A stretch of DNA of 64,000 bases from Leucoraja erinacea (Eukaryota). Position numbers and translations under genes: made by a program. Shown here piece after piece: positions 32,047-59,100 of the stretch. The notes beneath the pieces are model-generated. The model made no database searches. It saw only the letters and a program-made list of their open reading frames with translations, and was not told the DNA's origin. Within the stretch, counting starts at the first letter, position 1, and each line of letters starts with the position of its first letter. The stretch spans positions 31,248,001 to 31,312,000 of the forward strand of contig NC_073401.1 in assembly GCF_028641065.1 (NCBI RefSeq), given 5' to 3'.

Positions 32047-35000
32047 GTGAGGGGAGAGGATTCGGCCGGGGTGTGGGCCGGGGCCGGGTGGGTGTGGGGG
32101 GGAGCCGGGGCAGTGAGGGCGGCGGGTGTGGGCCGAGGCCGGGGGGTTGAGGGCGGCGGGTGTGGGGGCCTAGGGGGGCGTGAGGGCGGCGGGGGGGCCG
32201 AGGGGGCCGGGGCAGTGAGGGCGGCGGGTGGGGGCCGAGGCCGGGGGGTGAGGGGGCGGCGGGTGTGGGTGGGGGCCGGGGGTGTGGGGCGGCGGGGTGT
32301 GGGCCGGGGGGGCCGGGGAGTGAGGGCGGGGGGCGGGTGGGGCCGAGGCCGGGGGCGGGAGTGAGGGCGGCGGGTGTGGGTGGGGGCCGAGGCCGGGCCG
32401 GGGGAGTGAGGAAGGCGGGTGTGGGCCGGGGCCGGGCCGGGGGAGTGAGGGCTCGGATCCTCAGCAGATGGTGACCACGGGACGGCCTTCCCGCCCCGGG
32501 CCCGCAGCGGCTGCCGGCGGGGTGGGAGCGGGACCGGCCTGCGGTGCGGTGCGGGAGTCCGGGGGGAGGATGGCGGAGTAACGCTCTCCTGGGGCCCGGG
32601 GATCTGCAGCCTCTGGTGGGCCGCGGCCCCGGGTGGGAGGCGCCGTTTCCCGTCCCCGCCCTCGGGTTGCATCGGCGCCGGGATGAAAGCCGTCCGTCCC
32701 GGGGAGCTCAGTGCCGGCACTCCAAGTCAAGCAGGCCCATCGGCCCAACGTCCAAGCCCCATCTACACTAGTCCCACCTGCCTGTCCTCTAAATCTTTCC
32801 TATCCTTGTCCAAATTACTCTTAAATTATGTTATTGTGCCTGCTGCCTCAACTATACCCTCTGGCAAGTCGCTCCAGTACCCTCTGGGGAAAAAGTTGTG
32901 CCCCAGGTTCTATTAAATCTTTAAGAAGGAACTGCAGATGCTGGAAAATCGAAGGTACACAAAAAAGCTGGAGAAACTCAGCAGGTGCAGCAGCATCTAT
33001 GGAGTGAAGGAAATAGGCAACATTTCGGCCCGAAACGTTGCCTATTTCCTTCGCTCCATAGATGCTGCTGCACCCGCTGAGTTTCTCCAGCTTTTTTGTG
33101 TACCTTCTAGTAAATCTTCCACCGCCTCACCTTAAACCTAACCCCCATAGTTCTTGATTCGCCCCACACTGCATTCACCCTATCTATTCCCCTCATACAT
33201 TACACACCTCTGTAAGATCACCCCCTCAGTCTCCTGCGCTCCAAGGAACAATGTCCAAGTCTATCCCTGTACCTCAGGCCCTCGATTCCTGGAAATAGAC
33301 AATAGGTGCAGGAGGAGGCCATTCGGCCCTTCGAGCCAGCACTGCCATTCAATATGATCATAGTTGATCATCCACAATCAGTACCCCATTCCTGTCTTCT
33401 CTCCATATCCCTTAACTCTGCTATCCCTAAGAGCTCTATCTAACTCTATCTTTCTCTACCAAGAGAAAGCATCCAGAGAACCAGCCTCCACTGCCCTCTG
33501 AGGCAGAGAATTCCACACACTCACAACTCTGTGTGAAAAAGTTTTTCCTCATCTCTGTTCTAAATGGCTTACCACTTATTCTTAAACTATGGCCCCTGGT
33601 TCTGGACTTGTAAACCTTGTCAATCATCTCCCCAAAATCACAGGCCTGCACCAGTCACTTTCTCAGTCCCCGGCTGGTCTGGTTTCATAGTCAACCCACA
33701 CATCATGTCCACTCCTGAATTCTCAATCGTTTAATGTTTCTGCTCTGTGAGCCGACCCTCTCGCTGACCTGTCTCACTCACCCTACCCATTGCTCATTAT
33801 CCCTCCCTGTACCAACTACCCCATCTATCCCCACAATGTGGCCACAATCCACTCATTCTAGCCTCACCATGGCATACCAGCCATCCAGTCACTGACCAGG
33901 CCTCTTCCATCCTGCTGCCAGTAGGCCATGAAATGCAGCCTTGAATGTGGAGCAGCAGAAGCAGAGGGGCCTCCATCATTAACAAGGTCCGTCCTTTTTA
34001 ACCCCACAGCTCTCCACCAAGCCTACCATTCCTTGAGTATCACATAGCCTTAAGTCATCTCAAGGCACATTATCTCCACACAATTATCAGGACTAAATTA
34101 CATGTTCTATTCCACTGCCTATCTTACCAACTCACCGATATTGTCCTGTAGTTTACAACTATCCTGTTCACTATCAACAACACTGCTTACTAGTCATAGC
34201 TCCCATGATATTCTCCACGTCATTTGTTACTGTATGGACCAAGCAACAAGGTGCTAGCACCGACCCCTCTGCTACACACCAGGGTTCCAATAACAAACAC
34301 ATCACCCTCTGCAGTAGGCAGGTGCTATAGACCTACACGGGAAGGTAGACGCTCCCGCCCCCATGAGTCTCTGGCAAATGGGGCTCGTCAGCCTGGGAAG
34401 GTGGTTCATCTAGGAGAAGGAAAACTCTGATTTAAAACCTCCACTGCCTTGTGGCCATATCCAGTCATGGAAAAGGCTCCTGGAGTAAACCTCAAGAAAA
34501 CCCGGAGTCAGAGCCCCTAAGGTAGTTCGTCGTTGTCTACAACCTCGCTCTGGCAGCTCCTGCAACGGCGCTGGTGCCAAACTGTAACGGCCCTGCTATT
34601 CCTTTGGATCGATCAGCGACGTGGAGAGGGGGTACGTGCTGCATGGGCAACAGCCTGTCCTCCATGTGACATTGCCCAGGCTTGCATCTGACCACGCATC
34701 ACCTGCAAACTAGGATGCATCACCCATGGTCAGTCATGACCGAGGGGGGGCTATTACCCTCTGTCCTTACCCTCGTGCCACATTTGGATCCAATTTGCCA
34801 ACTTGCCTTGGATGAATAGACTCTAACATTTTGGACCATGTCAAAGCAAACTGAAGTCCATGTCGACTACACCAATCACACTGCACTTTATTGTCTCTTG
34901 ATGAGATTGGTCAGGCAGGATCTTCCAACAGCGCCATGCTGACAATCTTTGATTCACTGCTGCTGCTCCACTTGACATTCTGGCTCTAGGCAAGAGCAAT

Positions 35001-38905: not shown

Positions 38906-39086
38906 ATGTGGGATCGAGGAGTCCCGGTATAACTGATCTCAATGGGCATCCAGGAGACGGCCCTCCAATGAACATAGTTGCACCTCGTACTTGGGGAGGT
39001 GGTGGTGGATATCAGGGGACAATCATCCCAGCCCGGGACATCAGTGGTGTCGCACGCCCAATGATCTATTTGCCAATTAAAACTGT

Positions 39087-39213
39087 CTGAAGAAGGGTCT
39101 CGACCCGAAAAGTCACCCGTTCCTTCTCTCCAGAGATGCTGCCTGTCCCGCTGAGTTACTCCAGCACTTCGTGTCTACGGGGTAAACCAGCACCTGCAGT
39201 TCCTTCCCACACA
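39087..39213 (+). mobile_element. Short Penelope-derived repeat with hammerhead-like core (representative copy)
   Basis: CTGAAGAAGGGTCTCGACCCGAAAAGTC...GATGCTGCCTGTCCCGCTGAGTTACTCCAGCA...CCAGCACCTGCAGTTCCT; >15 related copies in the window. Confidence 0.75.
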
Positions 39214-39585
39214 CAACTATGCCTTCATGTTTTAGATTCCTGTTTCCTTAGAAATAGTCTTGACTATTCACTCATTCATTCACAAACCTCAGACTTCTTC
39301 ACTCCAGGAAACCCAGTGGCCGCCTGTCCAGAACTCCCCCCCCCGGCCCCGGCCTGTGTTTACACGGCCTGTAAACTGGGACCAGGCTGGTTGTGGGACG
39401 GGGATTGCAGCTCCTGCAGTCACATTACCTCATAGACTGGGGGTAAGACACAGAGACGGCGAAGTTACCATGCGATGTGGAGCCGACAGCGGGGGCGAGT
39501 GAGGCTGTGTCCTGAGCAGCGACGGGGCCAGGTGGTCAGCAAAGCTCCTCTATAATCTTTGATGGTCAGTGTCGGTCCAAGCCCG

Positions 39586-39595
39586 GCGCATGCGC
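39586..39595. promoter_or_regulatory. NRF-1 palindrome GCGCATGCGC in the MTRFR/MPHOSPH9 head-to-head promoter region
   Basis: Perfect match to the NRF-1 core within a CpG-rich region upstream of a mitochondrial-translation gene. Confidence 0.7.
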
Positions 39596-39609
39596 GCATC
39601 TCCGTGCCC

Positions 39610-40812
39610 GGCCTGTGGGGGGGGGGGGGGGGGGGCGCCCGACCTGTGGGGGCAGTACCGAGCAGTACCGCGCCCGGCGCCCGGCCTGTGGGGGCAGTAC
39701 CGAGCCCCTGGCCTGTGGGGGGGCAGTACCGCGTACCGCGCCCGGCCTGTGGGGGGCAGTACCGCGCCCGGCCTGTGTGTGTGTGGGGGGGGTTACCGCG
39801 CCCGCCTCCCGGCCTGGGGGGGGGCAGTACCGAACCCGGCCTGTGGGGGGTGTGTGGGGGGGGGGGGGTACCGCGGGGGGCCTGTGGGGGAGCAGTACCG
39901 CGCCCGGCCTGTGGGGGGCAGTACCGCGCCCGGCCTGTGGGGTGTGTGGGGGCAGTACCGCGCCCGGCCTGTGGGGGGCAGTACCGGCCTGCGGGGCCTG
40001 TGGGGGGGGGGGCAGTACCGCGCCCGGCCTGTGGGGCCAGTACCGCGCCCGACCTGTGGGGGGCAGTACCGCGCCCGGCCTGTGGGGGGGCAGTACCGGC
40101 CCGGCCTGTGGGGGGGGGGGGGCGCCCGGCCTGTGTGGGGGGGGGCAGTACCGCGCCCGGCCTGTGGGGGGCAGTACCGAGCGGGGCCTGTGGGGGCAGT
40201 ACCGCACCCGGCCTGTGGGGCAGTACCGCGCCCGGCCTGTGGGGCAGTACCGCGCCCGGCCTGTGGGGGGCAGTACCGAGCGGGGCCTGTGGGGCAGTAC
40301 CGCACCCGGCCTGTGGGGGGCAGTACCGCGCCCGGCCTGTGGGGCAGTACCGCGCCCGGCCTGTGGGGGCAGTACCGCGCCCGGCCTGTGGGGGGGCAGT
40401 ACCGAGCGGAGCCTGTGGGGGGCAGTACCGCACCCGGCCTGTGTGGGGGGGGCAGTACAGTACCGCGCCCGGCCTGTGGGGGGGCAGTACCGAGCGGGGC
40501 CTGGGGGCAGTACCGCACCCGGCCTGTGGGGGGGGGGCAGTACCGCGCCCGGCCTGTGGGGGGGGGGGGGGGGGGCAGTACCGCGCCCGGGGCTGTGGGG
40601 GACAGTACCGAGCGGAGCCTGTGGGGCAGTACCGCACCCGGCCTGTGGTGGGGGGGGGCAGTACCGCGCCCGGCCTGTGGGGGCAGTACCGAGCGGGGCC
40701 TGTGGGTGTGGGCCAGTACCGCACCCGGCCTGTGGGGGGGGGCAGTACCGCGCCCGGCCTATGGGGGCAGTACCGAGCGGGGCCTGTGGGCCAGTACCGC
40801 ACCCGGCCTGTA
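39610..40812. repeat. GC-rich minisatellite, ~40 units of CAGTACCG(CGCCC/CACCC/AGCGG)GGCCTGTG(G)n
   Basis: About 39 CAGTACC anchors counted, ~24-35 bp period, variable G-runs. Confidence 0.95.
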
Positions 40813-41031
40813 GGGCCCCGTCTGCCCACCGCCTCCTTCACTGAGAGACGCCCGGCCCATGACGGCAGCGTCCACACGCAGAGTCCTTGCGCCTCCAGCT
40901 CGGCCGGAGCAGGCCGCGGCCCGCGGACACCGGTACCGCCGGCAGCCGCCCTCACAGCGGCTACCACTCTATCTCTGCCTCTATCCATGGCTGGTCGGGG
41001 CAGCCTCTGCAGCAGGTGACTCGGGACCACC

Positions 41032-41144
41032 ATGGACGACTCAGAGCCAACTGTCAGCGCCAAAGCTGCAGGTCGCCAAGATGCTGAGGGGAAGGTGGCG
41101 GCCCCACGGTGCTCTGTGGCATCGGCGGCGGCGGCGGCACACAG
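41032..41144 (+). CDS. MPHOSPH9: MPHOSPH9 first coding exon
   Basis: Kozak ACCACCATGG; MDDSEPTVSAK...AAAHR|gtatgg; phase 2 fits the next exon. Confidence 0.7.
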
Positions 41145-44100
41145 GTATGGCCGGGGGGAGAGTGCTCATGGATCTAATCATCTCTTAACGTGTCTCATCT
41201 ACACCGTGAACACAAGGAACACACACACGGTGCTGGAGTAACTCAGCGGGTCAGGCAACATCTCTGGAGATTGAACTTGCTTTCGCCTTCCATCACAGTG
41301 AGGAATGTGGAGGATTAACTGTGGTGGATGTTTATGTTTAAATGTTTTCGTGTGTTCTGTTGCTTTCTCTTTGTATGACTGACTTGGCAAATTAAATTCC
41401 TCGTATGTTGCAAAACGTACATGGCTAATATACGTAGACACATAGTATTATTGTGATTGTGAACATGGATAGGGGACGTTTCGGGTCTGAAGAAGTGTCC
41501 TGATCCGAAAGATCACCTACCCATGTTGTCAGGAGATGCTGCCCAAAAATGATGCTGCCTGACCCGCTGAGTTACTCCAGCACGTCGTGTCATTAAACAT
41601 GTATAGTAGATTAGCCAGACCACCCATTGTGGATTTACCGAAGAAAATTGTTCGTTGAGCCAATCTCCGTTGCAGATAGAGAAGTTGGGTAGATGCTGGT
41701 TTAAACCGAAGATCAGACACTAGATGCTGGAGTAACTCAGCGGGACAGGCAGCATCTCTGGAGAGAAGGAGTGGGTGACGTCTCGGGTCCAGACTCTTCT
41801 TCAGACCTACTTAGCTTTTGACTTTTCTCGTTTTAACACTTTAGTTAACAAAAAAGGTCCCGATTTTAAATTTAACAATTAATATGATGAAGAGGGTTTT
41901 TAACGTCCGCCTTTGCGAGTTGATATTTTTTATCCTCAAAGGGCAAGCTTCGAGACTTTTGGTTAAACTCGCTTATTCAAGACACTTGAAGCAACTGGAG
42001 TAAAATAAACAGTACAGTGCAGTTATCCAGGATCAGTACTAGATACCAGGATAAACATTTCAGGTCGAGACCCTTCTTCGATTTAAACCAGCATCTGCAG
42101 TTCTTTCCTACACAGTAGATACCAGGAGTTGGTTCTGAGAAATGAAGACACGTGGAGCTTTTATCAATGAGGGCACATTGGGAAAGGGTGTTAGAGTTAA
42201 ATTTTAGCGTATCTACTGAAAACCAGATGCACTACTACATAAATTGGCAGAAATGGTTACAGCACTAAAAACAGGTCACTGGGCACCTAATATCCAATAA
42301 AAAACCCAATTTGTTAAGCACCTTAAAAAAAAAGCAAAGCGACCATGTATAGGAAGGAACTAGAGAGAGCTAGATAGGGTTCTTAAAAATAGCGGAGTCA
42401 GGGGATATGGGGAGAAGGCAGGAACGCGGTACTGATTGGGGATGATCAGCCATGATCACATTGAATGGCGGTGCAGGCTCTAAGGGCCAAATGGCCTACT
42501 CCTGCACCTATTGCCTATTGTCTATTGAACTGCAGATGCTGGCTTACACCAAAGATAGACACAAAATACTGGAGTAACTCAGTGGGAAAGGCAGCATCTC
42601 TGGATTGAAGGAATTCCTCCTATCCAGAGATGTTGCCTGCCCTGCTGTTACTCCAGCATTTTGTGTCTATTTTCACCTAATATCCATGTTGGCTTTCTAT
42701 ATGAGCCACCCTCCCTAGTTCTATCCCTGGCAGTTTCACCAGTGCTTTGAAACGTTTCTCAATGAAATAGTTATCTAATTCCTTCGTGACTTCCACCACA
42801 ACAACAGATTTCACCATACCTGTCAGGGAAGGACTTCCACAGTGAATGGAAAGTGAATTTATTTGTAAGGTTCTAGAAAATAAATACAAATCTTTGAATG
42901 AAGGTTTACACAGTTTTGGCAAAAAATGTGAAAATGGAAATCCTTTTGGTATTGGTTTATTATTGTCATGTGTCCTGAGATGCAGTGAAAAACTTTGTCT
43001 AGCCACTGAAATCATACCATACAGGAGTACAATCAAGCCATGCACAATCAAGCCCCCCATATCAGTCTGAAGAAGGGTTTCGGCTGGAAATGTTGCTTAT
43101 TTCCTTCGCTCCATAGATGCTGCTGCACCCGCTGAGTTTCTCCAGCATTTATGTGTACCCACAAATATAATAGGTTGTGTAAAGAGTAAAATAACCAGAG
43201 TGCAGAATATAGTGTTACAACTACAGAAAAAAAATATATACATTGCCAGGAACAAGATCATTTGGGATTGGGACTACACTCTTATCTTATGAGAGATCCA
43301 TCCGTTCATTTGTCTGATAACAGTGAGGAAGAAGCTGTACCTGAATCCAACGACACGTGCATTCAAGCTTTTGTATTTCTGCCTGATAGGAGAGGGGAGA
43401 AGAGGGAACACAGGGTGTAAGTGGTTCTTGATTATGTTCACTTTCTTGAGGCAGCATGCAGTGTGGATGGATTTATTGGGGCAGGTGGGGGAGACATGCT
43501 TATGTCTATGTTTTATGGCAGTATTAAAATATATACTGCAACCTAACTCTCTGTATAGGCATTAATATCAAAATACTGCTTCGGTAACCTTGTGCCTAAG
43601 TTGATTCCAAAGTGATAGTCAGTTCTTAGCTGGGTAAATATATTATTGTCAGTATCTCTGATCATTTTTGTACTCTACAAATTAGGTATGATTTTCATGA
43701 ACACTTGAAGAAAAAATTACCATTAATTAATCCAAGTGCTCTTCAAACCTTGGATCGTTTAATGCAAGAGATTCAAAACACAAGTCAGGCAGATCCTGAG
43801 ATCCTGAAGAAGTGTGAGGTTAGTTGTCTGTCATTCTGGAAATTAAATAATTTTACACCATTAATTCATGTACCACTAGGTATGTTTGTAAAGTCAGACG
43901 AACCAAGATCTTACTTATCTGCATTGATTTGTGATCTTGACTTTAAAACAAAATATTATGGATCATGTATAGATCATCCAAAGATTTTTGTTGTTGCTGT
44001 ATTTAAATGTTATCACTCTAAAGAATTATTTTGTTAACCCCCTGGAGACATTTAAAAGTCAAACCTGAAATTGGTTCCTTTAATTTTGTTCGCAGATTTT

Positions 44101-47100
44101 TTTACTTCCCTTCCTGGCCTTAGAGGAGGTAAATAGAGAGAGGGCGAGCAATTTTATTTTAAATCTTAGAGTTACTTTAATGTCCGCACTCGATGAAAGT
44201 ATTTACTGATGCTTAGTTACAGTATAAAAGGAAGAAAACGAGTATCTTCCTTTTTGACTTTCATGTTTTTGGACAATTTGTTATGCTGGTGGATGTGGCA
44301 GCTAGTTTGCAAACTTCCACCAAATAGCAACCAACCTTTTCACAAAGTTTGATATCAGTTGAAACTGTTGGTTAAGAATTTAGCCAACCTTTCCTATTCC
44401 TTGAAATCATTGAATCATTTTTATGTCTACATGTCCACCTGAATATGGATTCAGGGCCTATTGAGATTTGAACTTGCAATCTCCTAACTCCAAGGCTTTC
44501 AGTTAGGCAAGCGCTCCAGCATCGCCTCTCAATGTACATTGTTTATGTTATTGTAAGTTGTAGGCAGTTCTGTAAAATAAAATGTAATTATTGCACATAG
44601 TTGGATCAATACTGAGGCAGATAACATGTACTTTTGTGTCAATTGTTAGGCAAGATGGTTCCAGCTCTTTAAACTAGTGGAGAAGCAATACCAAGACCAG
44701 ATATTGTCCCAGCAGGACCAGTACCAATGTCAGATCCAAGTGAGTAAAATCAACATTATGGCATTTTTGATGGCTGTGTTAAGCTCATTAAAGTAAAAAA
44801 AAAACATAGTTCAGGAGTAATGATGAAGATCAGAAATACATGCAGAAAATCTCATCATCAGAACAAATACCAGGAACTGGGAGAATAGAATGGAGTCTTT
44901 AACATAGACATAGAAACATAGAAATTAGGTGCAGGAGTAGGCCATTCGGCCCTTCGAGCCTGCACCGCCATTCAATATGATCATGGCTGATCATCCAACT
45001 CAGTATCCCGTACCTGCCTTCTCTCCATACCCCCAGATCCCCTTAGCCACAAGGGCCACATCTAACTCCCTCTTAAATATAGCCAATGAACTGGCCTCAA
45101 CTACCCTCTGTGGCAGAGAGTTCCAGAGATTCACCACTCTCTGTGTGAAAAAAGTTCTTCTCATCTCGGTTTTAAAGGATTTCCCCCTTATCCTTAAGCT
45201 GTGACCCCTTGTCCTGGACTTCCCTACCATCGGGAACAATCTTCCTGCATCTAGCCTGTCCAACCCCTTAAGAATTTTGTAAGTTTCTATAAGATCCCGT
45301 CTCAATCTCCTAAATTCTAGAGAGTATAAACCAAGTCTATCCAGTCTTTCTTCATAAGACAGTCCTGACATCCCAGGAATCAGTCTGGTGAACCGTCTCT
45401 GCGCTCCCTCTATGGCACTAATGTCCTTCCTCAGATTTGGAGACCAAAACTGTACGCAATACTCCAGGTGTGGTCTCATCAAGACCCTGTACAACTGCAG
45501 TAGAACCTCCCTGCTCCTATACTCAAATCCTTTTGCAATGAAAGCTAATATACCATTCGCTTTCTTTACTGCCTGCTGCACCTGCACGCCTAAGATGCAG
45601 TGTGTGAGGAAGTACAGTCAAGATAGGCTGGAAACAAACGTCCATTCTTCACCTCCATCTCAAGAGAGGAAGATTCGGTGATGGACCATGGGGCCGTGAT
45701 GAACCAGTACGATAACTCCCTCGTGCTGCTCCCTATTGTCTTATTGAATTCCAAGATGTCATTATTTTCTACTGCCACTTTCTATCTTGCTCTTGCTTTC
45801 ACATTGTACATGATCAGTTACAAAGAAGATTTCTCAACTGAAAAATACCTGCTACTGATCTGTTCATGTTTAAATGTTGTCATACTCTTACTGTGGTCTA
45901 TGTCCACTAGAATGAAACTGAATCCTATGCAATCACCGTCAAGGATCCCATCAATCACAAGCCCTAAAGCAGAAACATCACTGATTGAGATGCCAAATAC
46001 CATAAGTGGAGGCAGGAATAAGCATCAGCTCCTCTTGCCAGATTGACATTCACTTTTTCACATGCGTCAAAGCCTCTTAATGTCTGAAATTCTACCCATT
46101 TCTATCTGTAATGTACTTGGTGACACCTTTCACAGTCTCTTTACCACCGAAGTGAAGAAAGTTCCTGATTCCAGCTGTAAATGGCAGATTTATGTTCTGA
46201 CGCAATGAAGCCTAGTTCAAGGTCACCATGCCAGGAGAAACATATATGCTGAATCTACCTGATAAGGGTTTTGGTTTCAATGGGATCGACTCTTGTTGCC
46301 CACTTTGGATTGTCCTGCTTCTTGTGGTGAGGATATACCAGGCCAGTTTACCTCGGGAGCATATGTCCAAACACCACTGCTGGGTCCCATCATTTAGTTG
46401 AGTTGGTGGGGTCAGTGAGTGCTGGTTGAGAGGCAAGGGTCAAGGGTTAACCTTTTCCTAAATAGCCATGAATTAAAATATGCGTTTTTAAAAAATATAT
46501 TGAAATGTGCTAGAAGTATTAAGTAATGCACAATGAGTGATATTATTTGTCGTGGTCAACTTACCCTGACCCTCTAAATTATGCTCTTGTTAAGATTATG
46601 TAATACATAAGCAAGATAACTTATTTGATAAGATTTGTGCATAAAATGTTATATTGCCAATTTTGTGTGTAAATTGTATTTTCAACCTGCCACTTCTAGC
46701 TTATCCAAGATGAAATCAAAGCACTAATTCAATTACAAAACGAAAATGGCCTCAAACATTGCACAGCCAAGTTACCATCCCCTTCAAAGCACTTAGGTGA
46801 CTTCGCTGGATCTGGTATTGCCAATGGCCACCATGTTAAGGAGTTGGAATCTGATGAACATTCTGACTGCAGTGCGATGGAAGAACAAATGATAGCTACC
46901 AGCCAATGTAATGACAACGACACAAGATTGACGTGTGCCAATGGGACATTTTTAGCACATGGACAACATATTTATCCGAGCCTTGGTACAGTAAATGAGG
47001 CAAGGCTGAATACTGCAAACAGTTCGCAGGCAACAAAGGAAAAAGATTCAATTCAATTCCAGCATAATCTATCCAGTCTTCCTCACCCGAAAGAAAATGT

Positions 47101-50100
47101 TCAAGAATCATTCTTTTTTGTCACTGGAGATAAACCTTCTTTCACATGCGTTTTAAGCAACCCAATTCACGACTTGAAGATCAACCAGGAAGCAAATAGC
47201 AATAAATCTGATTTTGAAATTAAAACTGTGACAGAAAGTCGTCTTGGTGAGCAGAACACCAGTGGGTATGTACCAAATTGTTGCAAAAATGCAAACGCTA
47301 ATATTGGTAAAGTTCAAGATTCATGTAAAATGTATGTACTCTGCAGTAAGGTGTAATCTTTAGAAAACAATGTGTCAAATTGGGGAATGAGTATTGAATA
47401 TTTTTGTGTTCATATAAATTGGATAGATTAGTTTTATTAATTGTAGTTTTGCAGCGTTGTGCTTTTGGAATGTGGAATATATCTTTCTTTGTTAAGCCTT
47501 TGAGAAGATGGTTCTACTTCCTGCTAGTAAAACACAAAGGCTTATAGAATGTAGCTTTTGTGAAGTGTCTGCTATGATGTGATTCAAACATAGAATACAG
47601 GGATCACGAGTTGATTGTTGGTTGTTCAAATATCAAGTAATTGCTATCAGTCAGAATCAGAATCTGATTTTCCCGTAGCCGGCATTCGGACCCTCCGCGT
47701 TGAGGCGTTCAGCTCCAGCATCGGGGGGGGGGGGGGGGGGGGGGGTGTCAGCTACTCCGCGCCGGACAATCGAACCTCGCGTTGGGGCTGGATAAACCTT
47801 CTACGGTGTTGGAGCTCCCAACTCGGCCTCTCCCGAGACTGCGAGCTCTTGATGGTAAGTCCGTAGACCGCGGTGGGAGCGATCCCAGGCAAGGAATCCG
47901 AAGGGTCTGTTTCCACACTGTATCACTCTGTGACTCCAATGACGAGGAATATTGACATTCAAGTAAAAAGCAGCACGTGTCGGGAATAGGCAGCTGGAAT
48001 TAAATGATGTAAGAGCACACTTAAGGAAATCAGGAGAAAAAAGGGGACGTGAGGTATTCTTGCGTTAGCAACTGCAAAGAGTTTCATTTTGGTAATGTAA
48101 ACTAGGGCAGGACATACAGTAGTAAGGCTCACTAGCCACAAATTCTCCTATTCTCTGTTTCCACATGTAATTGCAGGGCAGAATCCAATTTACCAGCTTT
48201 CCCATAGTATGGCTGTTTGGGTTACAGAAATTCGGCCTTATAGAATTTTCAAATCAGGAGAAGAAAAAGACTAACATTTAGGATGCGGAATAAAATTAGT
48301 TTTCTCAGACTTTATTGCAGGGGGAGGAGTGTGGGAGGAGTAAATAAGACAACATAAATGTATTTTCAAATCGTATGTCTTGATGCACACACAGGTGACG
48401 TGGCTTTGCATTACAGAACATTGTGATGCGGCCCATGTACTTGGAACACGAGCACTCTGTCACGCAGGAGGTTGCCTGTATTGTGCGGTGGGAACATCCA
48501 CCCAGGGTTACGAGGGCCATAAAGTGGCTTGATGCAGTGTCTGTGACCGCATTGAATTTGGTTTCTTCTTTTTTTTAAGTTTGACATCTTGGGCACAAAA
48601 GGTTAAAGAGAAAAAATGTAAATCAAAATGTGGAGCGGGAACAACATCAGAGATGGTACAGCCACACGGAGCTGGGCTGCCTCAGGAGACTGAAACGGCG
48701 CCAGATGTAAGCGTTCTGAACAGTTAAAGTATTTATTTAAAGTTTTCTCCAGGGATTCATAAAATCTACTATTGTTATTAATTATTTATATATTGAAAGA
48801 GACCGCTTTTAATATGCCTTTGTAATTTCATGCTGTTTTAATATTTGGCAGCTTCCAACTGACAATCACAATAAACATCACCCTGGTTAAGAAGTCTTAT
48901 CTTTTTCATTGACTTTTTCTGCTTCAAACATGAGCTGATAAATCTAGACTTACCAATGCCGAAACAGAAAACCCAGAAATTAATTACATTTTAGGCGTTT
49001 GCACTAGGTAAATATCCTGCCTTTATAAAGAGCCTTAAAATGAGCTTTTACAAACATAGCTTGCAAAAATGTACCCCTCTGTATTGAAGACTTTCTGAAA
49101 TTACTGTTTATTGACGGGACCTGGAATAAACATCATTTTATGGCAAGTTGACACAGAGAGTCCATCCGCCAAAGTTACTCCTCTGTAGTATTCAAGTTTA
49201 CCAGCTCGTTTTGTTCCGGCGTCAATAAATCGTCAGCTTCAGGTAGACGCGAAACTGAGAGGCTTGTGTTTAACATCTCATCTCCATTAATGATTGCCTC
49301 CTTATCAAAAGCAGTGAGTTTGTTTCTTTAAAATCACCTTTTTGCTAAATGCTTTCTTAATTGTGCAGATTATATAGTTTAATTTAAAACTTGCTTACTT
49401 GACATGCTTAAGAAGGAACTGCAGATGCTGGAAAATTGAAGGTAGACAAAAATGCTGGAGAAACTCAGCGGGTGAGGCAGCATCCATGGAGTGAAGGAAA
49501 TAGGCGACGTTTCGGGTCGTGACCCTTCTTCAGTTTATCTGACGTTAACATCATCAAAGACTGATTGTAGTAGTCCATGAATATTTAGAAACTTTAACAT
49601 GATTTTGTGAATGTTTTATTCAACATAGCTTTACAATCTTATTTTTCTCCAATTTTCAGGTTCATATGACCACTGCAGATTCTTCTCCCAATTGCTCCTT
49701 CTACCTCAGCAGACCTTCAAGCAGTCCAAATTCATTGGTATCCAGTGTTTCAGGTAGATGAGCTGCTTTGATTATTTGGGTTTGTAACTTGGTTAATTTT
49801 GTATAAGAGTGTATGTACCTTTCTACATTGAATTCCAGTGAATCATATAGAGATTTTTGTAGTATTTTTATATGCAGCTGGATGATTGGGGACAAAAACA
49901 GGCCCTTCGGTCCAACTTGCCCCAACCAGCCAACATGTCCCAGCTACGCTAGTACCACCTGCCCACGTTTGGTCCATATCACTCCAAACCTGTCTAACCA
50001 TATAATACCATATTACAATTACAGCACGGAAACAGGCCATCTCGACCCTTCTAGTCCGTGCCGAACACGTATTCTCCCCTAGTCCCATATACCTGCGCTC

Positions 50101-53100
50101 AGACCATAACCCTCCATTCCTTTCCCGTCCATATAACTATCCAATTTATTTTTAAATGATAAAAACGAACCTGCCTCCACCACCTTCTCTGGAAGCTCAT
50201 TCCACACAGCCACCACTCTCTGAGTAAAGAAGTTCCCCCTCATGTTACCCCTAAACTTCTGTCCCTTAATTCTCATCATGTCCCCTTGTTTGAATCTTCC
50301 CTTCTCTCAGTGGTAAAAGCTTATCCACGTCAACTCTGTCTATCCCTCTCATCATTTTAAAGACCTCTATCAAGTCCCCCCTTAACCTTCTGCGCTCCAA
50401 AGAATAAAACCCTAACTTGTTCAACCTTTCTCTGTAACTTAGTTGCTGAAACCCAGGCAACATTCTAGTAAATCTAAAGACTAAAGTATTTCTCTGAGGA
50501 ATAATTGGGTGTCATAGCATGAACTTTGTTCCAGTTTTCTGACTGCTTAAAATACTTGGTGAGGTACCTGACTGCTGTTTCAATTTCAGACGTTTTTAGA
50601 ACTACGACACTGGTATAATCTTGGGTTTTATTAATTATTATTATCAATGCGTGAGAGTTGGCAGCCCTGGGATTAAAAGATGATTAAATTGCAATATATA
50701 ACATTGTGATGGAGTAGGTGCAGTGATATTTACATCAGTGGGATAGTCTCAGTAGTTACATGATTGGGGGTGGGGTAGTCTGTAGAAAGGTGCATGTGTG
50801 CTTTGTGTAGTGGATGGTGAATCTCTGGAATTCTCTACTCCATTAGGGTATTTAAAGAAGGAGGTTTCAAGGTCAGCTTATTGTCACATGTACCAATTAA
50901 GGTACAGTGAAATTTGAGTTACCATAAGGCCATACAAAGTGAAAAGCAACAAGTCACACATACACATAGAAGTTCACATAAACATCCATCACAGAGGATT
51001 CCACATTCCTCACTGTGATGGAAGGCAATAAAGTTCAATCTACTTCCTCTTGTTCTCCCACGGTCGGGGCAGTCAAACCATCTGCAGTCGGGGCGATCAA
51101 AGCCCTCGCAGCTGACGGTCGAAGCCCCCGTCGGGGTCATCGAGACTCCCGCGTCGGGGCGGTTGAAACTCTCTCCGCAACATAGAGTTTCCGGGTTGGC
51201 CTCTTCTTACCAGAGACCTCGAGCTTCACAATGTTGAAGTCCACAGGCCCCGTGGTTGGAACTTCGATCCCGGCAAAGGGATCGGAAGCTCCATGATATT
51301 AAAGTGCCGCAGACTCCTGCGGTCTCCAGGAGAGGCCGCCAACTCCACGATGTTAGGCCGCAGTGTGGACAGAGATACGATACAGGAAAAAATATCGCAT
51401 CTCCGTCGAGGTAAGAGATTGAAAAAAGTTTCCCCCCCCAACTCCATCCCCACCTCCCACATAAAACAAACCAAGGAACACTAAAACATAGTTTTAACAT
51501 ACTAAAAATAACAAAAAGAAGAAAGGACAGACAGACTGTTGGCGAGGCAGCCTCTGCAGGTGGTGGGAAGCTGGCACTGGGTGCTGATGTTGGTTCACTT
51601 ATTCTGGTGAATGGGTTGTGGAATGAGCCAACAGAGATTGAGTAGCTTGCTCTTGTCATGTGGATTACCCTACTCCACAGTGTCAGCATCACTGATCCTT
51701 CAGCTCCAGGAGATGGGGAAAGACTAGCTGCACCTCTTTGATCTCAAAATAAAGGAATCTATGTAATTTCACAATTAGTTTTCCCATATCAAGATTGTGA
51801 GATTAGTTTTGTAGGAATTTAATGCATAAATGTTTGTTGGCTGAATTCTACTTTAACTTTAGGGCTATCTTATTGGCAAATGGATGAGCGAGAACTCTAC
51901 CACTCTTTACCGAAGAACAAGGAGACGGATCTTTCTGATGGATTCTCTCCCTCCAAAACCGACAAAACACTGCACGTATGTAGGAAATGCTTCACCAAGC
52001 AGCCAGCCTACTTTCACTGATATCACTGAGGAAATCTGTGTACGCCTGAAAACTGTTAATTTTCACAAAGAAGCTGTTTTATTTCCAGCTGTTTCTCAAA
52101 TATCCTGAATTCTTGAATGAATTCAAATGATGCCTTGAGGCGTAATTTTGTCATTTTTCTTTTATAATTTAAGAATCTAAAACATTTCTTCCAAGCTTTA
52201 ATTTGTCCCTTCCTCTTGGACATAAAACTATGAATTTACTACAATGCACGTGAAGTGGGAAAACAGAGGGACACCGAGGAAACAAGGAACAGCAGATGCT
52301 GGTTTATAGAAAAAGAAGGGCCTCGTCTGCAGTTATGTCAATGGGGAAACAGCAGTGGGGATGAGCATGGTTAACCAACTGTAGCATTGAAACAAGTTTT
52401 ATTCAACCTCGATTCTTCGGCCAACATGATGTTGTCTTGTGTGACAGCATGTAATTATTTAAGTATTTATACAACCCTGCTGGCTGCATTTAACATCAGA
52501 TGTAGCTTTTCAAACTTTTGCATTAGATTTGTTTTTTATTTTAAATTGCAGGAATTTAACCAGAAAAATAACAAGCCTATCATCATACCTGATAGACATA
52601 TATAAAACTGAGAGGTGGAGATAGTATAGACAGCCAAAACCTTTTTCCCAGCATAGAAATATCAAACACTAGAGGGCATAGCTTTAAGATGAGAGGAGCA
52701 GTTTAAAGGAGATTAGCTGGGCAAGCTTTCTTTATAGAGAGGGCGGTGGGTGCCCGGAACGCCCTGCCAGGGGTAGTGGTGGAGGCAAATGCATGTGGCA
52801 TTTAAGAGACTTTTGGATAGGCGCATGGATGTGGAGCGATATGGATTATGTATAGGCATCTAAGAATTGGTCTTAGCATCATGTTTAGCACACACATTGT
52901 GGGCCAAAGGGCCTGGGCCAGTTGCTGTTCTATGTTCTACTGCAAATTACTCCAGGGTCAGTTTCACAATGGTTGTAAGGTCTGCCGACTAATTTCATAC
53001 TGGCATTGTTTTGGGAATTTGGTATTCAATATTTGAAAAGATAGATATTTAAATTAGTGCATTGGTGCCCTGTGTGTTTTGATTTGCACCAAAGCAGTTT

Positions 53101-56100
53101 TATACAGAGCACCATTTAAAACAAGTATAGTTTAGAGATACAGCATGGAAACAGGCCTTTGTGGCTCACCGAGTCCACACCAACCAACAATCCCCACACA
53201 TTAGCACAAGCCAACACACACTCGGGAGAACATGGATAGGTGATGTTTCACAGAGTGCTGGAGTAATTCAGCGGGTCAGGCAGCATCTGTGGCGAACATG
53301 GATAGGTGATGTTTTCGGTTGGGACTTCTTCAGACTGAATAATAACTATAACATTGTCTAACAATAGATTAGATTTTTATCTTACAACATTATTGTATTA
53401 ACCAGGATGGTCTTGATTGGCTGAATATGATTCCATAATGCAATTAATACAAACTGGTTTTCTTCATTTGGGCAAATTAGACTTTCTTCATGCCTGTAGG
53501 TTTCAGAATAGTTGAGAGAGAGCTCCAACTCCCAAGAGAATCAGGCATTTTATTTTCACACTTGATGAGCAGCCAGCTCCAGCCATCTCTGTGGCTGCAT
53601 GGCTCTTGAATGCTCTGCAATACCAACCTCAGTTGCACCATTGCAACCTGCAGCGGCAGATTTAGGTGGAACATTTGTTGTTAGACTATTTTCCATCTTT
53701 ATCTTCTGCAGACTTTGTGTATAAGCACCTGTAATGTGTTGGCCACATCTTCTGTCATTGAACCATGTGATGAGTTGGCAACTACTTCCATTTCCTCTTA
53801 TAAACTTGTGTTCACCACTTTCTGCTGTGTGGTCCCAAGTTTCATTCATACTTGCTGGTAAGATTAAGATATTCCCTTATTTCACCAATTATTAGAACAA
53901 AAAATCTAAGGGATTGGGTTGCTTTTTAAATGACCTTAAAATATTTACCAGACTTGCATTAAGCTGGATCATATCACTAAAGTGAGAAAAACAAAAGTAT
54001 TTATTTTTAGTTTCCAGCAGACTCTCAGTGTGAGATCCCATCGCTGAAGGAGATCTATTGTATGAGGCAGAAAGACAAAGCGAGTCCGTCTGCCTGGGAT
54101 TCTTGCTCACCTCCACGCCTTCAGTCACCTCCACAGGTAAGACGATTTTGTTCAATGCAACCACATTTTGGAAACACGAGAGACTGCAGATGCTGGAATC
54201 TCAAGCAAAACCCAAAGTGCTGGCAGCATCTGTGGAAGGAAATGGGCGGGCAACGGGTCTGCAAGGGGCCCTTCTTCACACTGATGGATTCAGGGGGAGA
54301 AAGCTGGAAATAAGTGGAGGTGGCAGCTGGGCAACAGCTTTTCACATGTTTTAGCAACAGATCTCACGTTTTTTATGAATAGTTTTGGGAATTAGAAGAA
54401 CGTGGCGTACTGAAACCTTTGTAAGTTTGAATAGCGGAAGCTGAGGCAGAGTTCAAGAACAAGTATTTGTACCTTTGAAAGTTTTAGTGTTGCAAGGTCA
54501 GAACGTTTAGCAATAGGATTTCTGAAGGCAATTACTGAACGTGCTGGAGCAGAGGAGATACAATGTACAGTGGTTCAGAAGCAAAATAACTCACTCGGAG
54601 ATTGATCTGAGTTAAATTGGGATGAGTGAAAACCCTCATGATGGGGAATGTGTGTGTTTTGGTGGTTCATTAATCACCACAGGGCTTTCGAAAGGTTGTG
54701 GAAAACCATTGGTGCTTGTCATGGGAAAGGTAGGGAATACTTAATACAGGAGGAGGTTTAACTTTGGACCAGTGGGCTGGGCTGGGCCTGTTGGTGAGAA
54801 GGCGCCCGCATAGCGGTGGCAAAAACAGACTGGACAAGCTGATCAGGAAGGCCGGCTCAGTGGTTGGGGCTGAGCAGGTGGTTGGGTTTCTTCAGGTGGG
54901 GTGAAAACGTTGGACTGATATGCAGACAGTGAGAGGTTGTGGTTTTGGCACCACTATCCTGTGTATGTTGACCCATCCCCATCTGTAATTCAGCCAACCA
55001 ACGTGATGTCATTGGCGAATTAATAGGTAGCCACACAGTCAGCTACCCAGGGCAGAGTTTAGCAATAGTTTCTGCATCTAGGGAAAATGATGTTTGTGGG
55101 GGTTGTGTTGTTGCATTCAATCCGGAGATTGATGGAGAATGTCAGAGGCACTCAGCAGGTCAGGCAGCATCTGTGGAAGGAGAGACACGAGTTAATGTTG
55201 CAGGTCAAAGCCCCTTCTTTGGACCGGAAATGTTAACTTCCTCAGGGTGATGTTTCCAGCATTCTATATTTTTAGTTTAGATTTCCAGCAATCTACAGAT
55301 GATTTATATTTTCACAGACATGATTGGATTTTAAGGGACTTGGAGGTTGTTGGACAAGTGTGGGTTGAAGCGGTACTGAGGTGGAAGTTCAGCTGTCATC
55401 TTATTCAATGGCTGAGCAGGCATAAGGGACTGCATGGCTTCTCATATTGTGTATGTTCGTATTTGAAAGATCAGTTGATATTTGTTTATGTGTAATTCAT
55501 CTTCATATTTGAATGAAGATTTACATTAAAAGTTGATCAATTATCTTTTCTTGTCCTCCTAAGGTTTTAACACTTGATCCAAAGCTTCACATGAAGCCAA
55601 CTGAAGCATTTTCCCCACATGATCGTTGTAGTACCCCGCTGGTGGTTTCTGAATGTGAGACACTGTCTTCAGTTGGCCCAGACTCTCTCATCAGTGTAAC
55701 CGCACAAAGCTATTGCCATCCCCAATCAAATTTGTATGTATGTAGTAGTCCAGAATCAGAATTGATCGATACTTCCAAATGTACTGTACAGAAAAGCTCA
55801 GCACTTTCTCAAAGCTGGAATTGCCATTTGGCTTCTCCATCTTCCACTGTTGTCCAAGGTCCAATGTACAATGGCCAACATTGTACAAGCTTGAAACAAA
55901 CTCGGCATGCAAGCACCTTGCAAGGGCAAGGCGACAACAGCAGTTCCACGTTGACTCCATCATCTGTGCCTTGCATTGAGTTGAGGAGTGAAAAGAATAT
56001 AAATGGATTATTGGACTATGATGTTTCTGCTTCATCTCTTGAGGATCCCATCACATTATCAACGTAAGTGAACACTTTGTGAAAATACCTCATTGTTTAA

Positions 56101-59100
56101 GAAACCTCTTAGGTTTACATTGGTTGGAATCTATCAATAGTCCCAATTGTTTTAGTTACCTTATTTATGTAAGAAAGCAAGGTTATCATATGTTTCCAGT
56201 CAGCATTGAAGGCAGACTTGAGCATGGTAGTGCAGAGGTCAGTTGGGGAACTGCAAATTTGCCTTCACAGATTTCAGGGACTTAATGTGACTAAACTGTA
56301 TGCTTATGCAATTTATTTTTTGCATCATAAACTTAAATCCATGTTATTTATTTTATTTTATTTTAAAACTTGTTTCTAGTGCTCGCCTAAACTTGCGTGA
56401 GAAGCATGCACGTCATGTGGCCGACATCAGAGCGTACTACGAGGCAGAAATCGACAGCCTTAAGAAGAAACTGGACACTTTAAGTTCACCTTCAGCAATA
56501 TTTGAAGCAGAGAAACATAACCAGAATCTTTCCAAAAGGTTTTTTTTTGTTCCAAATAATAACAACATTTAAATATATATATTTTTTAACATCACCTACT
56601 GTTCTTGCATGTCGTTTTTTGAAATGTAACCAAAATATATGTGCTCTAGTGTAGTTCTATTATATATTTTTAAAAATCAATTTGCTTAAAATAATCAAAA
56701 TGTAATTAGAAACGTAACATACACAGGAGTAGAAATGTATTTTGATCTGTTCGATAGCATGATAGTCCAGATGCATCAGAACAGTGTGTCATTAGCCACT
56801 GGAAGCAATAAATGTTAATTAACTAAAGCTAAACTTGGAGAGGAAAAATACTGACAACTCGTGCTGGGAGATGGTGGGAAACTCTTATAAATTTGAAATG
56901 ATCACGTTGTACAGTTCTTGTCTCCTGAAATGTCTTGGGCATCGAATGTCTTTTCATTGAAGTGGCCATTTTACATACTGTGTGATAATGGATAATTCCA
57001 CTGAGAAGTTATTGCAAATCATTATTTTCAGATATCTGCATGTGTAAGTTTAAAATTGTCACTGGAGGCTGATCAGGAATCAGATTTATTTACTCTCTAC
57101 ATCGCCAGGTTAAGAATATTGGCAGAATTAATTCCCCATTACCTACAGGTATTATTGACTGAGCATTGACAATAACTTTGAAACTGTTGCAAGACTTTCA
57201 CGGCTACTTTGGATGTTTCAGATGTGAACAACTAGAAAGAACATTAACTGAGGCTGCCACAGTAATTCAGGATCTTGAGAACAAGAACTCCTTAATGGAA
57301 ATGCAATTGGTGAGTAAAAGTTCTTTTAGTAAGAGAATAGAATTTGTTATCCTTTGGAACAAATACTACAATTCATTCTTGATAAAACTGCTGCTTTAGT
57401 CCTAAGTGGAGTACCATAGGTTAGAAGATTTTTGAGGAAAATAAGTGCCAACCCCAGTAATGTCAGTTGTTTCTTTATTTACCATATAACCATAAAACAA
57501 TTACAGCACGGAAACAGGCCATCTCGGCCCTTTTAGTCCGTGCAGAACACTTACTCTCACCTAGTCACATCTACCTGCACTCAGACCATAACCCTCCATT
57601 CCTTTCCCGTCCATATAACTATTCAATTTATTTTTAAATGATAAAAACGAACCTGCCTTCACCACTTCCACTGGAAGCTCATTCCACACAGCTACCATTC
57701 TGAGTAAAGAAGTTCCCCCTCATGTTGCCCCTAAACATTTGTCCCTTAATTCTCAAGTCATGTCCTCTTGTTTGAATCTTCCCTACTCTCAATGGAAAAA
57801 GCTTATCCACGTCAACTCTGCCTATCCCTCTCATCATTTTAAAGACCTCTATTAAGTCCCCCCCCTTAACCTTTTGCGCTCCAAAGAATAAAGACCTATC
57901 TTGTTCAACCTTTCTCTGTAACTTAGGTGCTGAAACACAGGCAACATTCTAGTAAATCTCCTCTGTACTCTCTGTCTTTTGTTGACATCTTTCCTACAAT
58001 TTTGCGACCAGAATTGTACACCATATTCCAGAATTGGCCTCACCAATGCCTTGTACAATTTTAACATTACATCCCAACTTCTATACTCAATGCTCTGACT
58101 TATAAAGGCCAGCACACCAAAAGCTTTCTTTACCACCCTATCTACATGAGATTCCACCTTCAGGGAACTATGCAGTTATTCCTAGATCCCTCTGTTCAAC
58201 TGCATTCCTCAATTCGCTACCATTTACTATGTACGTCCTAATTTGATTTGTCCTGCCAAGATGTAGCACCTCACACTTATCAGGATTAAACTCCATCTGC
58301 CATCTTTCAGCCCACTCTTCCAAATGGCCTAAATCTCTCTGTAGAATTTGAAAACAAGTTCTACACTAACTTCCCTCAATGTCCTAGGGAATATCCTGTC
58401 AGGACCTGGAGATTTATCCACTTTTATATTTTTCAAAAGTGTCAGTACTTCCTCTTCTTTGATCCTCATAGTCTCCATAGCTACCCTACTTGTTCCCCTC
58501 ACCTCACATAATTCAATATCCTTCTCCTTGGTGAATACCGAAGAAAAAAAAATTGTTCAATATCTCCCCCATTTCTTTTGGCTCTGCAGATAGCTGTCCA
58601 CTCTGACTCTCTAATGGACCAATTTTATCTCTTGTTATCCTTTTGCTATTAATATAGCTGTAGAATCCCTTTGGATTTACTTTCACCTTACTTGCCAAAG
58701 CAAACTCATATCTTGTTTTAGCTTATCTAATTTCTTTCTTAAGATTCTTTTTACATTCTTTATCCGCTTAGCCGCTCCTGGGCCTCAAATGTAAAAAAAA
58801 CAAACATTTTTTCATGTTATTTACTAACTGTTAGAAATGACACTTGTCCTTTTGATAAGGCTGACTGGCCCGGACGCTATGATGCAGTTAGTACTGCGGC
58901 AAAGGCATTGCAACAGCGCCTCGATGAAATGCGAAAAGACAGCAAGGAGAAAGATAGCATGATCAACAAACTCAACAGCAGGCTGAAGGACCTAGAAGAA
59001 GCTTTTGAAAAAGCTTACAGACATTCTGATAACAAAGATGCCAGAAGAAAACAAGAACACAAAATATTGCAGGATGTGAGTCACAAATTATTTTAATTCA

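Follow-up and report, generated by a model that had tools for sequence, protein, structure and literature searches.

The 64-kb stretch of DNA analysed here, hereafter the window, is vertebrate-type sequence with a GC content of about 40%, presumably from a cartilaginous fish, and is densely populated by a dispersed repeat that begins with the catalytic core of a hammerhead ribozyme. The pieces of this repeat are short and decaying, and are most likely the leftover ends of Penelope-like elements (PLEs). Among the host genes, exons of a strawberry-notch gene lie on the + strand (Pfam AAA_34 and Helicase_C_4 at 9.2–19.0 kb), a gene with an RF-1 domain occupies the − strand at 37.8–38.5 kb, and long + frames suggest a third gene on the + strand past 41 kb. 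Judging by resemblance, we take these genes to be SBNO1, MTRFR and MPHOSPH9. A domain scan of the 150 longest of 295 listed stop-free frames also places pieces of long interspersed nuclear elements (LINEs) bearing reverse transcriptase (RT) in the window.

A dispersed repeat with a minimal hammerhead core

The ten hammerhead-core copies listed in a preliminary description of this DNA are all present, each in place and on the strand assigned to it, and the repeat is, as stated there, the commonest short one, being the most frequent dispersed repeat in a self-comparison of the window. The core pattern has nine matches at ≤3 mismatches, against 0.00 expected from 100 shuffles. A search with a profile of 19 window copies retrieves 28 pieces at E ≤ 0.05 and none from the reversed window, 19 of the 28 matching by construction. 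Altogether, 22 intervals of the repeat total 2,069 bp, or 3.2% of the window. The core is the head of a longer repeat, whose sequence continues for 90–130 bp past it, and diagnostic bases, sorted by eye, define at least three younger subfamilies (A, B and C), in addition to older relatives. Beyond the window, we used a public DNA run that contains this locus (a contig matches 38980–39108 without any difference), in which 176,866 contig pieces, of 20,444,512 records, align to the copy at 39087. In three RNA runs, which are poly(A) or single-cell data from a related organism and not from the stretch itself, 52,562 of 12,895,792, 54,331 of 12,895,792 and 44,194 of 17,596,208 reads match the family, a share of 0.25–0.42%. 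The family is very abundant on these contig-piece and read counts, and its presence in RNA is compatible with passive read-through.

Minimal hammerheads of PLEs are recognized by their core boxes, an additional base ahead of helix II, a G10.1–C11.1 pair and a palindrome at 15.2–16.2 (PMC4209133; this paper, PMC3846280, PMC8557442, PMC7229834 and a 2026 preprint by Li, Clavereau and Pollet are cited throughout from the portions available to us). All of these published marks occur in the window family, which bears out its earlier assignment to the minimal type-I hammerhead of PLEs. Among 13 tabulated copies of A, B or C type or similar, the core boxes CUGANGA, GAAA and UH are intact in two; they are intact in the majority of reads, with no non-CpG core position at ≥8% change among the positions listed. 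Across 11 aligned copies, the unpaired base between 9 and 10.1 is always A, the 10.1–11.1 pair is G–C in eight, G–U in two and unpaired in one, and helix II is 89% paired. The palindromic CG at 15.2–16.2 persists in four of the 11, most of the others being CpG-decayed. Helix I has 2 bp in the majority, with the outer two pairs present in 3/11 and 6/11, which places it at the low end of the published range.

Two structural points in the preliminary description need revision. Helix II was drawn with 5 bp and a 2-base loop, but 4 bp closed by a 4-base loop fits better, and the variation within this helix, described there as lying in the loop or forming G–U wobbles, consists of one-sided changes only, none of the five pairs being altered on both sides. 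Covariation in helix II is not above chance, its score being reached by 72 of 500 shuffles of only 11 related copies. The accompanying argument from G–U wobbles fails, because CpG decay would itself produce C>T and G>A changes on one side of a pair. The copy at 49533, singled out as the best, does have a whole core and an ACGT palindrome but has 0 bp of helix I, and no copy among the 13 tabulated combines every hammerhead feature. A descriptor scan of the window passes only 39087, 49533 and 10279(−), the last an older hammerhead copy absent from the earlier list. Rfam hammerhead models give no window hit at the gathering threshold and none at E ≤ 10 near 49533 and 10279. In predicted monomer folds, the purine-rich core pairs with downstream pyrimidines, and catalysis is not expected of the inserted copies.

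The same combination of CUGANGA, extra base, G10.1–C11.1, GAAA, palindromic CG and UH characterizes the minimal hammerheads in the pseudo-long terminal repeats (pLTRs) of metazoan PLEs, which, as in the window, mostly occur singly and scattered, in association with truncated elements, and include close pairs on opposite strands (PMC4209133). In Fig. S3 of that paper, the Acropora Neptune row is laid out as in the window, its helix II having 4 bp and a loop of 4 bases. Helix I measures 3–6 bp in most of the published rows, in contrast to 2 bp in the window family, and 2-bp helices also occur in the Culex, several Drosophila and the Oikopleura rows. The density is far greater in the window, at 28 pieces per 64 kb compared with 4,000–9,000 motifs per coelacanth or Xenopus genome, counted with a stricter descriptor; parts 1–2 of 3 of supplementary file 2 hold no entry for shark, Callorhinchus, skate or Leucoraja. 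Judged by the sequence features tested, the window family represents the minimal hammerhead of PLEs, borne on remnants of pLTRs. The pairing of Penelope-like termini with minimal hammerheads is known from many animals, and the present case extends it to a very dense family, probably in a cartilaginous fish. The papers searched include no description of this family, which is probably annotated in Repbase and Dfam, outside the scope of the search. Retrozymes and PLEs are reported in one chondrichthyan genome, with a mean retrozyme consensus of 363 bp (Li, Clavereau and Pollet 2026 preprint), and related sequences may figure in the tables of that preprint. The whale shark genome is also noted to contain Penelope elements.

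Insertion anatomy of the copies

The copies show the insertion marks of Penelope elements, namely head-to-head inversions, two 3′ ends and target duplications. Published Neptune and Nematis insertions share with them 5′ truncation, an inverted 5′ copy with a palindromic junction, an optional tail of 30–40 bp at one end and a short target duplication, given as 8–10 bp for PLEs (PMC3846280, PMC8557442). The ends of 24 pieces were placed on a common scale with C3 at 0. Their 3′ ends fall into two classes 30–36 bp apart, 12 at +86 to +104 and 9 at +108 to +126, with 3 shorter; the tails in 32921–33107 and 42052–42115 measure 31 and 36 bases by eye. The 5′ ends lie at −8 to +2 in 14 of the 24 pieces, and no piece (0/24) starts at the cleavage site (+28). 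Target duplications of 11–14 bp flank 3 of 17 insertions, two found by script and the third by eye. By self-alignment, 4 of 18 regions have inverted arms, and eight listed inversion joints, linking the unit start to 39120–39134, occur in RNA and in 6–40 DNA contigs each. Read depth drops to near zero beyond the tail. In the upstream direction, some copies extend into a pyrimidine-rich stretch, with a loose-end agreement of 0.34–0.50. A TCAGT motif precedes the core in 3 of 13 copies, the three that retain this position, and in the majority sequence of loose read ends. TCAGT resembles the initiator consensus. The motif could be an RNA start or, alternatively, a 3′ splice site like the one at helix I of Drosophila Penelope (PMC4209133).

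The inverted pairs illustrate these marks most directly. The subfamily B head-to-head pair at 32921–33107 has both arms cut within helix II, a tail on one arm only and a target duplication matching at 13 of 14 positions. Its subfamily A counterpart at 42527–42669 joins its arms 5 bases beyond the predicted cleavage site and is likewise tailed on one arm. At 42052–42115, an inverted core half is joined to a direct tail piece between the two halves of a 12-bp target duplication (42040–42051 and 42116–42127, by eye). An older pair at 14675–14967 consists of arms 14675–14725 (−) and 14888–14967 (+), with G12 mutated at 14896; a subfamily B copy with U4 mutated (14768–14862, −) is nested between these arms, a younger insertion into an older pair that belongs to the same type of repeat.

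Single copies are damaged at varied positions. The tailed subfamily A copy at 39085–39212 (+), antisense to the RF-1-domain gene and probably intronic, has a core (39087–39114) that is whole save for position 15.2, which breaks the palindrome, and a 2-bp helix I; the C at 39111 is restored in 74–78% of reads. The tailed copy at 49400–49533 (−), antisense to the putative + strand host gene, is the sole copy with a whole core, a 4-bp helix II and ACGT, and it is cut at C3, so that helix I is absent. Subfamily A is also represented on the − strand by 41691–41806, with A14 mutated (GAGA) and a mismatch in helix II, and by the tailless 24502–24599, with C3 mutated and an exact 11-bp target duplication at 24491–24501 and 24600–24610. 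Subfamily B includes 43065–43164 (+), in which the G10.1–C11.1 pair is gone, and a tailed piece without a core at 59428–59509 (+). The subfamily C copy at 41462–41591 (+; core at 41487) has a helix II mismatch, a lost palindrome and a fold-back arm that pairs with the core and would mask it. Further members of subfamily C are a piece at 25114–25173 (+) with G12 mutated, a piece at 63214–63293 (−) cut within helix II and the copy at 53221–53335 (−), which contains a 66-base partial tandem restarting at GAAA, with both palindromes decayed; the joint of this partial tandem recurs in reads. The remaining pieces, all on the − strand, are a decayed copy with mutations at G8 and G12 (4866–4959), a heavily decayed copy (55138–55224), an older copy that has both the tail and the pyrimidine-rich upstream part (54190–54330) and a coreless piece (41214–41270).

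A reverse transcriptase remnant and the probable origin of the repeat

The older hammerhead at 10279 (−), with a CUGAUGA core, belongs to a related copy at 10216–10285 whose body matches the family profile at E 0.035 and whose helix I reaches 6 bp if one extra base is allowed. It is inverted relative to a decayed Penelope-like RT core and thumb of Neptune/Nematis type at 10422–11075 (+), which is broken by stops and deletions and is followed, in another frame, by a GIY-YIG-like LYVGE motif at 11089. A probable tail piece (10351–10396, +; E 6.9 × 10−4 in self-comparison) directly precedes the RT, and LINE-like sequence follows the PLE remnant as a whole (10216–11130). Word-based protein searches gave no match to the decayed RT, nor did Pfam, NCBIfam or the PDB. 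A HMMER scan of 1.84 billion proteins, with window positions 10404–11153 translated with X at stops as the query, yielded 14 matches, 6 of them with RVT_1. The top match (P0004), a repetitive protein matching 25 residues, was discarded as an artefact; the best RT match (P0005, E 2.3 × 10−8) carries RT, a CX2-5CxxC linker and GIY-YIG. In the longer relatives of P0005, the linker precedes GIY-YIG in 45 of 51, and RVT_1 and GIY-YIG occur together in all four that were rescanned. RT followed by this linker and GIY-YIG is the Neptune/Nematis arrangement (PMC8557442), and the relatives of the remnant share the linker of those PLEs. A tblastn search back to the window recovers 10626–11075 at E 2.8 × 10−14, within the remnant as placed at 10422–11075.

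These observations make it probable, in our judgement, that the repeat consists of solo pLTR and tail ends left behind by Neptune-type PLEs, the inserted copies being predicted to be catalytically dead. The mechanism that we propose is carried over by analogy from an anole Poseidon element, PAc (PMC11167929), in which reverse transcription in vitro starts from two internal sites, and these delimit the tail. The main substrate in PAc is RNA whose hammerhead is uncut, cleavage requires bound protein, and no ends of RNA-seq reads fall at the cleavage site. The window family shares with that element the two classes of 3′ end defining a tail, the uncleaved hammerhead in its copies and the lack of RNA-seq ends at the cleavage site. 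It differs in clade, and the open reading frame (ORF), which starts within helix II in PAc, has no established conserved start here. By this analogy, the RT/GIY-YIG protein of the element would nick the target DNA, and reverse transcription would begin at either of two internal sites, about 60–70 or 90–100 bases downstream of the hammerhead. Copying would then pass through the uncleaved hammerhead and halt at or just before the core, with frequent fold-back giving an inverted arm. The halt may be the RNA's own 5′ end, for which the initiator-like TCAGT is a lead only. Priming 60–100 bases downstream together with a stop near the core would account for short pieces of the observed kind, and fold-back for the inverted arms. 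The hammerhead itself would be retained in master elements, where it may act as a dimer or with the help of protein, and would be a passenger in the copies.

Several points weigh against this reading. The hammerhead beside the RT remnant belongs to an older copy with a weak profile match, and it therefore ties the repeat type to PLEs, not subfamilies A–C themselves; the 'tail' at 10351–10396 aligns weakly as RT and could be decayed RT coding sequence. In contrast to Neptune and Nematis elements, the window copies are nearly all terminal pieces, with no ORF of the same subfamily seen, and no full-length element bearing A, B or C ends was recovered, pattern scans of metagenome, viral and prokaryote sequences giving 0 loci. 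The 14 distant PLE loci found in metagenomes are only 24–42% identical relatives. No clear target duplication flanks 14 of the 17 insertions, and the clustering of 5′ ends is partly an artefact, because the reference sequences begin near the core. Very few copies reach upstream into an element body, which a separate short family would fit equally well. Finally, the read sources are relatives, and their belonging to the same species as the window is not established.

A search of viral contigs with the PLE protein gave no match. Descriptor hits occur in 2 of the 14 distant metagenome loci. In one of these (L013), the core layout is the same, with a fold-back junction at the core start, and the hammerhead lies on the opposite strand to the RT match and 1.4 kb upstream of it. 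Positions 1080–1200 of this locus hold a solo fold-back pair of the minimal hammerhead end, with its junction at the core start as at window 41487.

It is possible, though on balance we think it unlikely, that the repeat is a self-standing non-autonomous element resembling a short interspersed nuclear element (SINE), with short masters of its own that start just before the hammerhead and are mobilized in trans by a Neptune-type protein. The very large number of copies and their uniformly short length, the division into three subfamilies by diagnostic bases, the 14 of 24 pieces with 5′ ends within a few bases of C3, the TCAGT motif in the three copies and in the majority sequence of the loose ends, and the loss of read depth past the tail are all as such an element would have them, and pLTR-mediated trans-mobilization has been described (PMC3846280). 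The copies that continue upstream into the pyrimidine-rich stretch are at odds with it, however, a tRNA-derived head was looked for and none was found, and short pieces made of pLTR alone are in any case expected from 5′ truncation combined with internal initiation. The preliminary description had called the repeat a high-copy, non-autonomous, PLE-derived family. High copy number stands on the contig pieces and Penelope derivation on the insertion anatomy and the RT remnant; that it forms a separate non-autonomous family, as opposed to short terminal pieces of autonomous elements, is not established.

Core decay, host orientation and ribozyme activity

In copies, the CpG positions of the core decay like a control CpG, as neutral DNA would. 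G12 (window 39107) is changed in 16% of DNA and in 22%, 22% and 25% of the RNA runs, and the G of the control CpG in 15% of DNA and in 15%, 15% and 16% of the RNA runs. The majority of reads being intact while CpG core sites mutate like the control, masters would keep the core and copies decay. The excess of changed G12 in RNA may be a subfamily variant, and the comparison spans two organisms. By hand count, 4 of 16 core-bearing copies (14896, 25116, 41487 and 43067) are sense to the host gene as predicted, and all four are damaged; 39087 and 49533, which have the two intact cores, and 10279 lie antisense to host genes.

Head-to-tail joints are rare. Back-joints to the unit start number 0–4 reads per RNA run and occur also in DNA, and poly(A) libraries would miss circles. 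Apart from the window copy at 53333, the 66-base partial tandem with its restart at GAAA occurs in both bulk runs (1,162 reads, 4.9% of depth, and 1,433 reads, 5.9%), in 93 single-cell reads and in 3 DNA contigs. As a source in cis of a second ACGU, this partial tandem has predicted pair probabilities of 0.001. Rescue of helix III by this route is predicted to be unfavourable, at a cost of 4.8 kcal/mol, or 8.7 kcal/mol with helix I included. In one single-cell run (X20), minus-strand reads exceed plus-strand reads by 8.5:1 over the hammerhead and by 3–3.7:1 further on, compared with 1.1:1 in the bulk runs; this excess was set aside as evidence, because the run is of unknown chemistry and its T-rich loose ends point to priming with oligo-dT.

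A composite account would join several of these features. In it, the family would be an abundant, Neptune-dependent short retroposon whose RNA starts 3 bases before the core; the 66-base partial tandem of one subfamily would supply the second ACGU and so a dimer-type site in cis, with protein help, and the purging of active sense copies would give both the G12-mutant excess in RNA and the antisense bias. We regard this account as improbable.

Still less probable, and in our view very improbable, is that the dispersed copies are working ribozymes, which cut host pre-mRNA or give small or circular RNAs in the manner of retrozymes. The intact majority core, the share of the relative's RNA reads that match the family, the head-to-tail joints (in 11–18 DNA contigs) and the partial tandem (5–6% of bulk RNA depth) could be read in its favour, and the G12 excess in RNA or the antisense bias, with only 4 of 16 copies sense, could reflect a loss of active copies. 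Against it, no window copy has all the features, the unit forms no tandem array, Rfam hammerhead models do not match, predicted monomer folds sequester the core with downstream pyrimidines and the partial tandem would pay the energetic cost already given. Among published minimal hammerheads, monomers show no activity and dimers weak activity (PMC4209133), and 8 of 9 Xenopus dimers failed to cleave (Li, Clavereau and Pollet 2026 preprint). No read-end pile-up is listed in the RNA runs, a weak test given that these are poly(A) or single-cell data from a relative, read at a threshold of one fifth of depth. The suggestion in the preliminary description that sense copies cleave pre-mRNA or yield small or circular RNAs accordingly finds no support, with all four sense cores damaged, both intact cores antisense and G12 decaying like the control CpG.

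Animal non-LTR retrozymes (PMC7229834; 2026 preprint) are, like the window family, short, non-coding, related to PLE pLTRs and equipped with a type-I hammerhead. They form tandem arrays with mostly canonical hammerheads and circular RNAs, however, whereas the window family is dispersed, minimal and often inverted. Among 23 TRF rows, there is no tandem array of whole-hammerhead units. With such arrays lacking and head-to-tail joints rare in reads, a retrozyme reading was rejected.

The least credible explanation is that a single ancestral repeat resembled a hammerhead by chance and was then spread by copying: there is no compensatory change, a relaxed descriptor gives a mean of 0.36 hits per random sequence of window length and the ten matches are one observation because the copies share ancestry, but all four marks of PLE hammerheads outside the descriptor are present, the published Neptune motif, L013 and the older window copy all repeat the layout with different letters in helix II, and the motif sits in PLE-type termini, its match to PLE pLTR hammerheads largely refuting chance.

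At hundreds of pieces per megabase, the family offers material for two genome-wide tests. The positions of 5′ and 3′ ends, the junctions of inversions and the ratio of sense to antisense copies could show if PLEs transpose from uncleaved RNA and if the hammerhead is ever active in host transcripts, both questions left open in the cited papers.

The window contains other repeats. A GC-rich tandem array with a unit of 25–26 bp occupies 39602–40816, inside a CpG island between two apparently head-to-head genes, and a degenerate GC-rich array with periods of 34 and 102 lies at 32064–32441. CR1-like LINE 3′ fragments occur in pairs (49997–50475 with 57481–57959, and 25326–25994 with 44910–45585). 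One host exon has an Atlas value of 0.75, which we treat as a lead only. Further SINE-like dispersed repeats of 120–320 bp are found at 12926–13048, 33294–33609, 41217–41377, 42362–42525 and 60603–60739.

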